From Escherichia coli (GTDB lineage: Bacteria; Pseudomonadota; Gammaproteobacteria; Enterobacterales; Enterobacteriaceae): a stretch of DNA of 64,000 nucleotides. Shown here in pieces: positions 42,788-44,250 of this stretch (position 1 is its first letter; each line of letters starts with the position of its first letter). Position numbers and translations under genes: made by a program. The notes beneath the pieces are model-generated. The model saw only the letters and a list, made by a program, of their open reading frames with translations. It ran no database searches and had not been told where the DNA came from. Location of the stretch: assembly GCF_044324785.1 (NCBI RefSeq), contig NZ_CP172127.1, one strand, 5' to 3'.

Positions 42788-43153
42788 ATGGCACTGACGA
42801 AAAAACAACGTGCAGAACTGCGCATGAAGTTCGGCGGTCGCTGCGCTTATTGCGGCTGCGAGCTTGGCGAAAAGTGGCATGCAGACCATGTAAAACCGGT
42901 CATTCGTTTTGCTGGAAATATGCTTCACCAGGACCGTGACGATATATCCAACATGGTTCCGGCATGCCACCCATGCAATCTGCACAAGCATTGCAGTAGC
43001 CTGGAAGATTATCGGCGAATTATCAGTGATGGTCGTCGTGAATTCCTTGCGTCCGGGAAAGGCAAGGCGCTGGTTCGTATGGGATTGGTTGAAATGAAAT
43101 CTGACCCGGTTGTGTTCTGGTTTGAAAAATATCAAGAAGGGGCTACGGCATGA
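42788..43153 (+). CDS. HNH endonuclease (small, stand-alone)
   Basis: 121 aa; CAYCGC...HADHVKP...N...ACHPCNLHKH is an HNH motif with zinc-binding Cys pairs; RBS AAGGAG. Confidence 0.8.
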   Translation: MALTKKQRAELRMKFGGRCAYCGCELGEKWHADHVKPVIRFAGNMLHQDRDDISNMVPACHPCNLHKHCSSLEDYRRIISDGRREFLASGKGKALVRMGLVEMKSDPVVFWFEKYQEGATA

Positions 43154-43536
43154 CCACTATTACCAAAGAGCGACTGCTGACAATCAAACAGTGGCGCGAA
43201 ACATACGGACCGGGTAGCAACGTTGTCCTTCCAGCAGAAGAAGCGGAAGAACTGGCACGAATTGCTCTGGCATCGCTGGAAGCAAAACCAATAGGTGCAT
43301 TCCACATTGCAGAACAGCAAGTTGACGGCACAAGTGACTACCTCAAGGATGGAGAATGGCCTATTGATAATGGAATTATTGAGGTCTACGCCGCTCCCCC
43401 CGTTCCAGTAGTACCGGAAGAAAAACCAATGCCTAATCCTCTTAGCATGTACGCGGTCGATGCTGTTGCCGCTATTGCAGAGGTGAGAGGCTGGAACGCC
43501 TGTCGTGCCGCCATGCTTCATGGTAAAGGAGAGTGA
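43150..43536 (+). CDS. Hypothetical protein, paralog of 43744-44250 (N-terminal half)
   Basis: Starts MTTITKERLL and contains ARIALASLEAKP; the downstream paralog starts MTTITRENAE and contains FRIALASLEAEP. Confidence 0.5.
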   Translation: MTTITKERLLTIKQWRETYGPGSNVVLPAEEAEELARIALASLEAKPIGAFHIAEQQVDGTSDYLKDGEWPIDNGIIEVYAAPPVPVVPEEKPMPNPLSMYAVDAVAAIAEVRGWNACRAAMLHGKGE

Positions 43537-43537
43537 T

Positions 43538-43747
43538 ATGGCTATTGCCGCAAGTTACACAATGCATCTCTATTGTGACTGCCGCCAGTGTACGGAAGGT
43601 GTATATCCAGTGCCAGACTTCGGTGAGTATATAGGTACGTCATGGGCTGGCTGTGCAAAAGAGGCGCGCAAGGATGGCTGGCGAATAAGCAAAGACAAAA
43701 CACGTGCTTTTGCGCCAGGGCATAAAGTTTTAAGGATTAACAAATGA
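43538..43747 (+). CDS. Small Cys-rich hypothetical protein (69 aa)
   Basis: RBS AAGGAG; CDCRQC...C pattern suggests a zinc ribbon. Confidence 0.45.
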   Translation: MAIAASYTMHLYCDCRQCTEGVYPVPDFGEYIGTSWAGCAKEARKDGWRISKDKTRAFAPGHKVLRINK

Positions 43748-44250
43748 CCACTATTACCAGAGAAAACGCGGAAATTAAATCATTCATCACTGGTTTCCTG
43801 AGCGACGCGGCGCACGATAAACAATCGTCAAACAGCCTGCTTGCCAATGTGTTTCGTATCGCACTGGCATCACTGGAAGCAGAGCCAGTTGCGTGGCGAT
43901 ATCGCTACGTGAAAAAAGGCGTTACGGACTCTCAGGGGGAGTCGTGGGTTGGTGACTGGAAATATGTACCGACAAAAGAGGATTGCAACGACAGACCGAA
44001 CTATGAAATTCAGGCGTTATTCACGGCTCAGCCTGTGCCACTGACACAAGAAGTGTTGAATCTGGAGAAGGCCAGGATGCAGTTGCGTGTTTTGTTATCT
44101 GGACCTGTTCCTGCAATCACTCCGATGGCGCATGCCGTGGCAATAAAAGTTGTGCTTGATGCTCTGGATGCGAGTGAGCGGAGGGTGGCTGAACTGGAAC
44201 AGGTCTGCACTGCCGCGGGTATTCGTATCAAAGGGGAACAAGTGAAATGA
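43744..44250 (+). CDS. Hypothetical protein, paralog of 43150-43536
   Basis: 168 aa; shared N-terminal motifs with 43150-43536. Confidence 0.5.
   Translation: MTTITRENAEIKSFITGFLSDAAHDKQSSNSLLANVFRIALASLEAEPVAWRYRYVKKGVTDSQGESWVGDWKYVPTKEDCNDRPNYEIQALFTAQPVPLTQEVLNLEKARMQLRVLLSGPVPAITPMAHAVAIKVVLDALDASERRVAELEQVCTAAGIRIKGEQVK

Follow-up and report, generated by a model that had tools for sequence, protein, structure and literature searches.

Two neighbouring MTTIT genes in a variable slot of an Escherichia coli integrative and conjugative element, probably assembled independently from phage-type cassettes

ORF-A and ORF-B are two small genes, both starting with MTTIT, found in an Escherichia coli stretch of 64,000 nucleotides (assembly GCF_044324785.1, contig NZ_CP172127.1), which is called the window here. 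They belong to a cassette carried by an SPI-7-type integrative and conjugative element (ICE). The two open reading frames (ORFs) are arranged head to tail, 594 bp apart, with a small Cys-rich ORF (the mini-ORF) between them, and a preliminary description of the window took them for two diverged copies of one module. We consider it very probable that ORF-A and ORF-B are independently assembled members of a hyper-mosaic phage-type family that occupies a variable slot of the ICE, and that short conserved anchors in these proteins bracket swappable cassettes. The N-terminal signature shared by the pair consists of such conserved anchors and is not a duplicated domain.

Similarity between ORF-A and ORF-B is confined to junction motifs

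The positions of the ORFs, their MTTIT starts and the motifs shared between them were all confirmed as previously described (Table 1). The same is true of the 69-aa ORF between them, whose four Cys include three that are invariant in its family. Both MTTIT genes start at an ATGA stop/start overlap, and a consensus scan of the + strand across the cluster from ORF-A to ORF-B detected neither promoter-like nor terminator-like sites. Since all three ORFs also lie on the same strand, it is plausible that ORF-A, the mini-ORF and ORF-B form a single operon, which supports the earlier suggestion that both genes share one.

The two proteins align over 106 aa with 28% identity (BLASTP, E=3e-4), and 0 of 2000 shuffles reached their Smith-Waterman score (z=6.7). 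This likeness is made up of the junction motifs MTTIT(K/R)E, RIALASLEA(K/E)P and PVP and of a C-terminal KGE. The first 16 nt of the two genes are identical (ATGACCACTATTACCA), and the DNA stretch encoding ALASLEA is identical at 27 of 33 nt; both the 16-nt start and the ALASLEA anchor are present in exactly two copies in the window, where about 0 are expected. Once the two N-terminal anchors were taken out, no similarity was left in the inner N-module (z=0.0) or in the middle segments (z=-0.2). The C-terminal parts gave a weak residual signal (z=3.1) from the PVP stretch and the terminal KGE, as ORF-B itself ends in AAGIRIKGEQVK. There is thus no overall similarity between ORF-A and ORF-B, yet the motifs that they share are real and non-random. 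The earlier view is supported in that both proteins have a modular N-terminal architecture in common, together with matches to the same protein families; it is not supported as to two copies of one local gene, the interiors being unrelated.

Both proteins belong to a family of mosaic architecture

ORF-A and ORF-B both match phrog_60, phrog_660, phrog_5117 and phrog_3323, all of which are function-unknown PHROGs. ORF-A aligned to phrog_5117 with aa 1-126 on profile positions 1-124 of 125 (E=3e-22), and ORF-B to phrog_660 with aa 1-108 on profile positions 3-99 of 193 (E=1.6e-28). Neither Pfam nor NCBIfam profiles matched ORF-A, ORF-B or the mini-ORF (Pfam at E<=0.1 for ORF-A and ORF-B). The family to which the two proteins belong was delineated in this analysis as the 'MTTIT-head' mosaic family; its members are annotated elsewhere as Eaa, DUF551 domain-containing or Ea22 proteins.

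The family layout is an N-module, a variable cassette (V1), a LYxAPPxP anchor (anchor 2), a further variable cassette (V2) and a GWNACRAAML anchor (anchor 3), after which the protein either ends or continues into DUF551 or another tail. In an alignment of diverse members, the N-module takes up about 47 aa, from M[TI]TIT[KR]E to RIALASLEA[EK]P. V1 is 25-50 aa or more in length and exists in dozens of mutually unalignable versions, and V2 is likewise highly variable. Anchor 2 has the form (P)[LV][YF]xAPPxPVVP[ED] and anchor 3 the form GWNACRAAML(QGKGE). Searched against 1.84 billion representatives, a profile of the head retrieved 2208 clusters at 50% identity, and its match was nearly always N-terminal, in proteins of 73-418 aa. 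Out of 145 family representatives, 117 start with MTTIT, MITIT or MSTIT and 116 carry the RIALASLEA[EK]P anchor, taken as the end of helix 2 some 40-70 aa from the start. DUF551 is present in 37 of them and a dATP/dGTP pyrophosphohydrolase domain, DUF4752 and Ead_Ea22 in one each, the rest being without a Pfam domain.

Both ORFs begin with M[TI]TIT[KR]E at an ATGA or closely spaced junction and carry RIALASLEA[EK]P, at aa 37-47 in ORF-A and aa 38-48 in ORF-B. Anchor 2, searched for as [LV][YF]xAxPxP, is VYAAPPVP in ORF-A (aa 79-86) and LFTAQPVP in ORF-B (aa 92-99). GWNACRAAML follows V2 in ORF-A (aa 114-123) and is absent from ORF-B, because the part of ORF-B after anchor 2 has been replaced by a fused downstream gene. 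Neither protein scored above the gathering threshold of the Ead_Ea22 hidden Markov model (PF13935, Ead/Ea22-like), which describes an N-terminal xINYQALREAAE motif followed by a coiled coil, and DUF551 (PF04448), a domain of about 68 aa that is usually C-terminal, was found in neither of them.

Cassettes reassort, with breakpoints at the anchors

Parsing of 298 proteins yielded at least 33 V1 clusters and at least 21 V2 clusters between the anchors, and the V1 of ORF-B was found behind at least 10 types of N-module, including the Ead/Ea22 N-terminus. Seven four-gamete quartets were detected for N-module and V1, and four for V1 and V2. The N-module of ORF-A is joined at ALASLEAEP to the V1 of ORF-B in P0238 and in the one MTTIT gene present in L002, a related ICE (8510-8983; L and P numbers are our handles for loci and proteins). 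An Ead/Ea22 N-terminus with its coiled coil is joined to the same V1, again at ALASLEAEP, in P0230. The N-module of ORF-B stands in front of a third V1 and DUF551 at L003 4516-5028, B-type heads are fused to DUF551 in P0140, P0238 and L003, and one ORF (P0124) holds a B-like head plus an A-like head.

Comparison of the window with L002 places the limits of homology at the same elements. Homology stops right after the Ead/Ea22 N-terminal anchor and restarts at the linker that opens ORF-A (J2, see below), then stops again at ASLEA and restarts at the ASLEA anchor of ORF-B. The 141-nt DNA of the ORF-A N-module was located in 1798 places in 1265 of 5426 complete E. coli genomes, at 90-100% identity and in up to seven copies per genome; 253 of the copies were on plasmids. 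In a spread sample of 30 out of 1344 matching E. coli records, the matches mostly end at nt 132-135 (...ASLEA). Third codon positions account for 19 of the 33 variable sites in this N-module, a bias that shows purifying selection on it, the module being maintained as a protein; its conservation would at the same time supply the homology for exchange.

Phage Rad52-like recombinases recombine short, diverged homologies, and intragenic segments of about 100 bp are often exchanged (PMC3945230). Cassettes of the MTTIT-head family may be exchanged in the same manner, by relaxed homologous recombination at short conserved stretches, in which case the anchors would have two roles, one structural or translational and the other as sites of recombination. 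Hypervariability of V1 generated by point mutation, or in the manner of a diversity-generating retroelement, was considered and rejected, as the V1 variants are non-homologous cassettes of unequal length and neither a reverse transcriptase nor a template repeat was seen.

Two short linkers join many different genes

The modular genome hypothesis, with linker or boundary sequences at the gene boundaries of lambdoid phages, is an old idea from the HK97, HK022 and HK620 literature. Two linkers of this kind, J1 and J2, occupy the gene boundaries of the cassette, so that the local order reads Ead/Ea22 remnant, J1, HNH gene, J2, ORF-A, J1, mini-ORF, J2, ORF-B. J1 (AAAGGAGAnTGATATGGC) occurs twice in the window, compared with 0.01 copies expected. 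It contains C-terminal codons of the upstream gene (KGE in the ORF-A copy), which double as a Shine-Dalgarno sequence, then the stop and the ATG GC of the next gene. J2 is the 16-nt start described above (ATGACCACTATTACCA), with the ATGA overlap that opens both MTTIT genes.

J1 was found in at least 120 IMG/VR contigs, where the C-termini upstream of it are of at least 29 kinds and the genes downstream of at least 30, in at least 50 different pairs. Among the matches listed, the upstream C-termini are mostly ...GIRIKGE or ...GKGE, and the genes downstream of the 127 sites listed include a 171-aa ORF (43 sites), the mini-ORF (21), an 87-aa ORF (15) and the HNH gene (3). As in the module exchange of lambdoid phages, breakpoints lie at gene boundaries or short conserved stretches, and linkers of 16-18 nt join many gene pairs. 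Unlike the lambdoid linkers, the anchors described here are also intragenic, at module boundaries within one small protein, and the mosaic system extends to an ICE and to phage-plasmids. The linkers would persist since they also provide translational coupling.

Related ICEs carry zero, one or two MTTIT genes

ICEs of the STY4528 type were detected in 109 of the 5426 E. coli genomes. The slot between the DUF2857/ParE-like genes and the STY4528 gene was surveyed for MTTIT genes in the window type, L002, L004-L009 and L012. Two were present in the window type and in L004, where both have an A-type N-module with different V1 and V2, and one in each of L002, L005, L006 and L012, every time with a different V1. 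The slot of L007, L008 and L009 holds no MTTIT gene and has two unrelated small genes in its place. The preliminary description had raised the question of whether related ICEs carry one or two copies; copy number and composition are not conserved, with zero, one or two genes in differing module combinations, which argues against an obligatory two-component function.

L007-L009 are more distant SPI-7-type ICEs, and the two small genes in their slot encode either an XF1762-family protein and a hypothetical protein, or a hypothetical protein and an ead/Ea22-like protein of 142 aa. Phage-type ea genes thus tend to be present even where the slot is reduced to a minimal form.

ORF-A is a natural short form

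We retrieved 5700 homologues of ORF-A, the majority of them DUF551 proteins that have its first ~126 aa in common. The best are proteins of 195-224 aa annotated as 'DUF551 domain-containing' or 'Eaa', which are 94-99% identical to ORF-A over the first ~126 aa and run on into a C-terminal DUF551 where ORF-A ends in ...AMLHGKGE. The 128-aa form is itself common (cluster P0002, 212 members, 'putative eaa protein'), and it recurs with the same layout on a plasmid locus, the phage-plasmid L013. Considering its abundance and its recurrence on this locus, ORF-A is a natural short, DUF551-less form that ends after anchor 3 and not a broken gene. Within anchor 3, residues W115, N116, A117, C118, R119, A121, M122 and L123 are invariant or nearly so.

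The Prokaryotic Genome Annotation Pipeline (PGAP) calls ORF-A a 45-aa partial pseudogene with a 'missing C-terminus' (43150-43284; L001 12851-12985) that ends exactly at ALASLEA, and the same call recurs in L004, L005 and L013. It is an annotation artefact of mosaic genes, as the evidence protein matches the first 45 aa only, up to ASLEA. Two A-type proteins, P0011 and P0007, were called with an N-terminal extension that contains CxC...CxxC motifs (MKTFTIDWLNKCRCGNKSH...CNSCGRGG...); the extension is either a real fusion to an upstream zinc-ribbon-like gene or gene-calling read-through at the junction.

ORF-B is a rare gene fusion

ORF-B has 968 homologues, which widely share the first ~104 aa only, and its full-length form is rare, being present in clusters P0121 and P0122 only. 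In DNA alignments with L002, 182 bp are missing from the window between ...CTGACAC(A/C)AGAAG and TGTTGAATCTGG... (joint 44053|44054). In L002, L004, L005, L006 and L012, the upstream gene runs on as ...PEGLIKAVRFYEQVKRENPPVETGAWKDAVDWVL..., a state seen in hundreds of clusters, and the downstream part (MLNLEKARMQ...AAGIRIKGEQVK) is a separate gene of 71-72 aa in another reading frame. The alignment identifies ORF-B as a recent and rare gene fusion, generated by a 182-bp deletion that joined a head gene to the next small gene; the length of the deletion is not a multiple of three, and the two are now in frame. An imperfect repeat, GAAGnnTTGA, is aligned at both ends of the deletion and may be a weak sign of slippage.

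The mini-ORF and the B-type N-module were also found as one block in phage vB_EcoM-606R7 (L003), at ~91% identity. In this phage, the N-module heads a DUF551 protein annotated as 'Ea22' (L003, 4516-5028), which again directly follows the mini-ORF. The block was additionally retrieved, at 90% nt identity, from PP818812.1, which is entered as Actinobacillus phage vB_Apl-pPE4 with Actinobacillus pleuropneumoniae as its host. For a comparison across bacterial families this identity is unexpectedly high, and it could reflect a recent transfer or a host or contamination issue.

The mini-ORF is a small stand-alone protein

The mini-ORF, at 43538-43747, occupies a J1-to-J2 slot and matches phrog_926 (E=8e-37). 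Its family comprises 47 clusters from Enterobacterales (E. coli, Salmonella, Kosakonia and Pantoea) and consists of small stand-alone proteins in which C13-x-C15-x2-C18 is invariant, H62 is almost invariant and a GWRIS motif is conserved. AlphaFold2 (AF2) modelled it as a small alpha/beta unit with a predicted local distance difference test (pLDDT) score of 66-88. As the CxCxxC motif is invariant and the His nearly so, a zinc site is a reasonable guess. The possibility that the mini-ORF is a displaced DUF551 domain was rejected, as no Pfam family matched it and its relatives make up a separate family of small stand-alone proteins.

Predicted structures and possible function

ORF-A was folded as an ORF-A-linker-mini-ORF fusion with a block-diagonal alignment. 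In the resulting model, helices 6-19 and 29-44 form a helical hairpin corresponding to the N-module, V1 is poorly defined, and a confident helix at 102-124 (pLDDT ~80) contains GWNACRAAML. The ORF-B model has helices at 3-19 and 29-46 (pLDDT ~60) and a four-stranded beta module at 50-92 corresponding to V1 (pLDDT 75-85; strands 50-61, 67-69, 73-75 and 87-92), followed by C-terminal helices of low confidence, in part below pLDDT 50. Structure prediction, also proposed in the preliminary description, therefore yielded low-confidence models that inform on secondary structure only. At that level, the anchors coincide with predicted secondary-structure boundaries: one lies where helix 2 ends, and the others at the first and last V1 strands.

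The only characterised relatives of ORF-A and ORF-B are Ea22 proteins, which are mosaic, early, tetrameric and pro-lysogenic; DUF551 is a portable C-terminal domain in some Stx variants (PMC10834534). Ea22 and Ead/Ea22-like proteins (PF13935) are small, early and non-essential, are encoded in the exo-xis/ea region, and combine a shared N-terminal part with interchangeable C-terminal domains, DUF551 among them (PMC10834534, PMC7093339). Some Ead/Ea22-like proteins carry the exact ALASLEAEP and V1 of ORF-B (P0230), and 370 bp separate ORF-A from an Ead/Ea22 remnant upstream of it. Unlike Ea22, ORF-A and ORF-B lack the N-terminal and coiled-coil signature of Ead_Ea22 and have a different N-module (MTTIT...). 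The 'Eaa'/DUF551 prophage proteins of E. coli and Salmonella (PF04448) are 94-99% identical to ORF-A in their N-terminal two-thirds but differ from both ORFs in possessing DUF551.

By analogy, ORF-A and ORF-B may be non-essential accessory factors that are expressed early, in which the conserved helical N-module would provide a scaffold or an interaction element and any target specificity would reside in the variable cassettes. Our confidence in both assignments is low, as the sequence and fold searches gave no significant relative of known function. Variable recognition modules would be in keeping with the constant-variable-constant layout. A full-text literature search for the motifs returned no paper, the matches being unrelated words.

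Alternative explanations

In the preliminary description, the pair was attributed to local duplication. A tandem duplication in the ICE operon, with copies that diverged into a specificity or decoy pair flanking the mini-ORF, would account for the same start, the same ALASLEA motif, the same strand, the spacing of 594 bp and the matches to the same PHROGs. However, the sequences between the anchors are unrelated (z ~0), and over most of its length neither protein has the other as its closest relative, each module having much closer relatives in other genomes. The mini-ORF and the ORF-B N-module travel as one block in phage, and the number of copies in related ICEs varies from 0 to 2, with the modules combined in other ways; in one ICE the only copy is a hybrid of the ORF-A N-module and the ORF-B V1. 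A local duplication is accordingly highly improbable. A single-domain family under diversifying selection would have structural anchors and recognition loops engaged in an arms race (anti-defence or exclusion, for example), and recombination at the anchors would be incidental to it. Such a family would be expected to show anchors at predicted secondary-structure boundaries, a third-position bias in the N-module indicative of selection on the protein, and a constant-variable-constant-variable-constant layout in an early accessory region, all of which were found here. Against this, the V1 and V2 variants are unalignable and differ in length from ~25 to ~50 aa or more, which points to cassette replacement and not to diversification by point mutation, a given cassette can stand behind different N-modules, and PADLOC found no match to a known defence or anti-defence family. 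We regard diversifying selection on a single domain as unlikely.

It also seems improbable that the genes are non-functional debris, that is, decaying phage fragments in a tolerant ICE slot, with ORF-A and ORF-B open by chance. The idea draws on the PGAP calls of ORF-A and the Ead/Ea22 ORF as partial pseudogenes, on the origin of ORF-B as a deletion fusion whose full-length form is rare, on the pLDDT below 50 in the C-terminal part of ORF-B and on the presence of the whole cassette in only 4 of 5426 genomes. Yet all ORFs are intact and have kept their Shine-Dalgarno sequences and start/stop coupling, the N-module is under purifying selection, and the 128-aa form of ORF-A is common (a cluster of 212 members) and recurs on a phage-plasmid, the PGAP call being an artefact of mosaicism.

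Several points weigh against the reading that we favour, the independent assembly of ORF-A and ORF-B by exchange of cassettes between anchors. Recombination at the anchors is itself inferred from the breakpoints and the reassortment, and the synonymous variation within anchors (27 of 33 nt identical at ALASLEA) shows that they are conserved mainly as protein. Module clustering drew on sequences chosen as matches to ORF-A or ORF-B; this sample is biased, and the numbers of cassettes obtained from it are lower bounds. Among the IMG/VR matches to J1, some probably reflect a generic coincidence of Shine-Dalgarno sequence, stop and ATG in unrelated phages. Overall confidence is low both in the AF2 model of ORF-B (mean pLDDT 57) and in that of the ORF-A fusion (mean pLDDT 61). 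No functional lead emerged from Pfam or NCBIfam for ORF-A, ORF-B or the mini-ORF, from sequence searches of the PDB with the head and mini-ORF profiles (nothing below E=0.5) or from Foldseek comparison of both AF2 models with the PDB (none below E=0.4; the RRM/PII-like rows for the mini-ORF were not significant). Searches of PADLOC-DB revealed no membership in a defence system, with a marginal match of ORF-A to PglZ (E=0.0016, 14.9 bits) and none for ORF-B or the mini-ORF.

The cassette and its element

The chromosome of the avian-pathogenic strain E. coli O2:K1:H5 APEC E19035 matches the region at 100% identity. The genes around the cassette, with an STY4528-family protein among them (NCBIfam NF040582, E=1e-115), identify the host element as an SPI-7-type ICE. 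Its left part encodes, in order, integrase, ParA, dnaB-PI, ParB, DUF2786, DUF2857 and a ParE-like protein; to the right of the cassette are the STY4528-family replication protein, topoisomerase III, ssb and the pil/ICE transfer genes. The cassette of ~2.2 kb consists of DUF7446, a truncated ead/Ea22-like gene, an HNH endonuclease, ORF-A, the mini-ORF, ORF-B and a 69-aa gene, and it fills the variable slot between the partition/replication genes (parB, DUF2786, DUF2857, ParE-like) and the STY4528-family gene. The Ead/Ea22 remnant matches Pfam Ead_Ea22 with aa 2-22 only, at 26.2 bits against a cutoff of 27.

Table 1. Coordinates of the cassette genes, of the modules of ORF-A and ORF-B and of the J1 linkers in the window
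Feature	Position	Strand	Description
DUF7446 gene	42317..42574	+	Pfam PF24233, E=1.7e-15; left conserved edge of cassette; also in L002, L006, L012
Ead/Ea22 remnant ORF	42561..42776	+	Keeps N-terminal anchor (MSKINYQALREAAEKA) only; PGAP: partial
J1 copy 1	42775..42792	+	AAAGGAGATTGATATGGC; joins Ead remnant to HNH gene
HNH endonuclease gene	42788..43153	+	Free-standing; Pfam HNH, E=1.3e-6; phrog_2118, E=3e-56; J1-to-J2 slot
ORF-A	43150-43536	+	128 aa; starts MTTITKERLL; ARIALASLEAKP at aa 36-47
ORF-A, A-type N-module	43150..43290	+	aa 1-47; J2 at 43150-43165; ALASLEAKP anchor, DNA 43264-43283
ORF-A, V1 cassette	43291..43383	+	IGAFHIAEQQVDG...GIIE; one of at least 33 unrelated V1 clusters
ORF-A, anchor 2	43384..43419	+	VYAAPPVPVVPE; near-invariant Y80, P84, V87, V88, P89
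ORF-A, V2 cassette	43420..43488	+	EKPMPNPLSMYAVDAVAAIAEVR; at least 21 V2 clusters, this being one; reassortment with V1 shown by four-gamete quartets
ORF-A, anchor 3 (GWNACRAAML)	43489..43518	+	Within predicted helix
J1 copy 2	43525..43542	+	AAAGGAGAGTGATATGGC; joins ORF-A to mini-ORF
Mini-ORF	43538-43747	+	69 aa; 4 Cys; between ORF-A and ORF-B
ORF-B	43744-44250	+	168 aa; starts MTTITRENAE; FRIALASLEAEP at aa 37-48
ORF-B, B-type N-module	43744..43887	+	aa 1-48; J2 at 43744-43759; ALASLEAEP anchor, DNA 43861-43880
ORF-B, V1 and anchor 2	43888..44040	+	V1 VAWRYRYVKKG...EIQA; anchor 2 LFTAQPVP; predicted four-stranded beta module
ORF-B, deletion-fusion joint	44053..44054	+	182 bp of L002 absent (DNA alignment)
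ORF-B, C-terminal module	44054..44250	+	LNLEKARMQ...AAGIRIKGEQVK; J1-type AGIRIKGE end; low-confidence helical
Last small gene of cassette	44258..44467	+	69 aa; phrog_5994, E=4e-24
STY4528-family ICE replication protein gene	44729..45994	+	NF040582, E=1e-115; right conserved flank of slot

The whole cassette was retrieved from 4 of the 5426 complete E. coli genomes, and pieces of it from 2705. Pieces were also present in 324 phage records, mostly of Stx-converting, lambdoid and P22-like phages, with matches at 90-97% identity; the largest contiguous share of the cassette in any one phage was <=24%. Phages and prophages have these pieces in their early accessory regions. The surrounding genes in a P22-like prophage are Eae, ead/Ea22-like and eaa, beside torI/xis; the pieces lie between DUF1627/DUF4406/DUF4752 genes and hokD in an Stx-type prophage, and between replication gene O and Q in phage vB_EcoM-606R7. 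A 93-kb plasmid with ead/Ea22-like genes carries them as well. Genes like those of the cassette are typical of the early accessory ('ea', exo-xis and nin) regions of temperate phages of the lambdoid and P22-like kinds.

The slot held by the HNH gene upstream of ORF-A is taken by a 171-aa ORF or the mini-ORF in related ICEs and in many contigs of IMG/VR. The 171-aa ORF (MALTH(R/H)ELCQIAYKF...) is marked as frameshifted by PGAP and has no Pfam match; Pfam searches on the neighbouring slot genes of related loci, this ORF of L002 included, were uninformative. A homing-type nuclease in the HNH slot could promote local gene conversion. At 44250-44260, a 1-nt deletion relative to L002 (ATGAAACTG -> ATGAACTG) has removed the overlapping start of the last cassette gene, which now begins at a second ATG, at 44258.

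Directly downstream of the STY4528-family replication gene, a 36-bp tandem repeat extends over 46012-46832 (22.8 copies, 91% matches), with the palindrome ATGGTGCCAGTGGCACCAT in each unit. This array is a candidate iteron/origin or centromere-like array. A minus-strand 'hypothetical protein' that PGAP places across it is probably spurious, and the length of the equivalent 'gene' in related ICEs ranges from 486 to 966 nt, suggesting that the repeat copy number varies.

Implications

The mosaicism described here is ordinary for temperate phages and stands out for its clear anchors and for its span over phage, phage-plasmid and ICE. What is new is a further member and a clear anatomy of a known mosaicism; no new mechanism or function is revealed. 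For annotation, ORF-A shows why mosaic phage genes come to be mis-called. The anchor map, with three intragenic anchors and two intergenic linkers, offers a handle for cataloguing the family of 2208 clusters and for choosing constructs with which to study its constant and variable parts.

A more speculative proposal, to which we attach only a small probability, is that the anchors together with J1 and J2 are a selected, shuffling-ready scaffold, through which a combinatorial library of small early proteins would be common to phages, phage-plasmids and ICEs. The helical N-module, as the constant part, would then dock on a common partner of the host or the element, and V1 and V2 would set the host factor or defence system that is bound. 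If this were true, ORF-A and ORF-B would be two specificities deployed together on entry into a new cell. That is near the specificity or decoy component suggested in the preliminary description, but it would have been made by cassette exchange and not by duplication.

At the level of the element, the slot turns over quickly, with 0 to 2 MTTIT genes and differing nuclease or mini-ORF cassettes. Temperate phages, phage-plasmids and the replication/partition module of an SPI-7-type ICE have in common one pool of small early accessory genes, linkers included.

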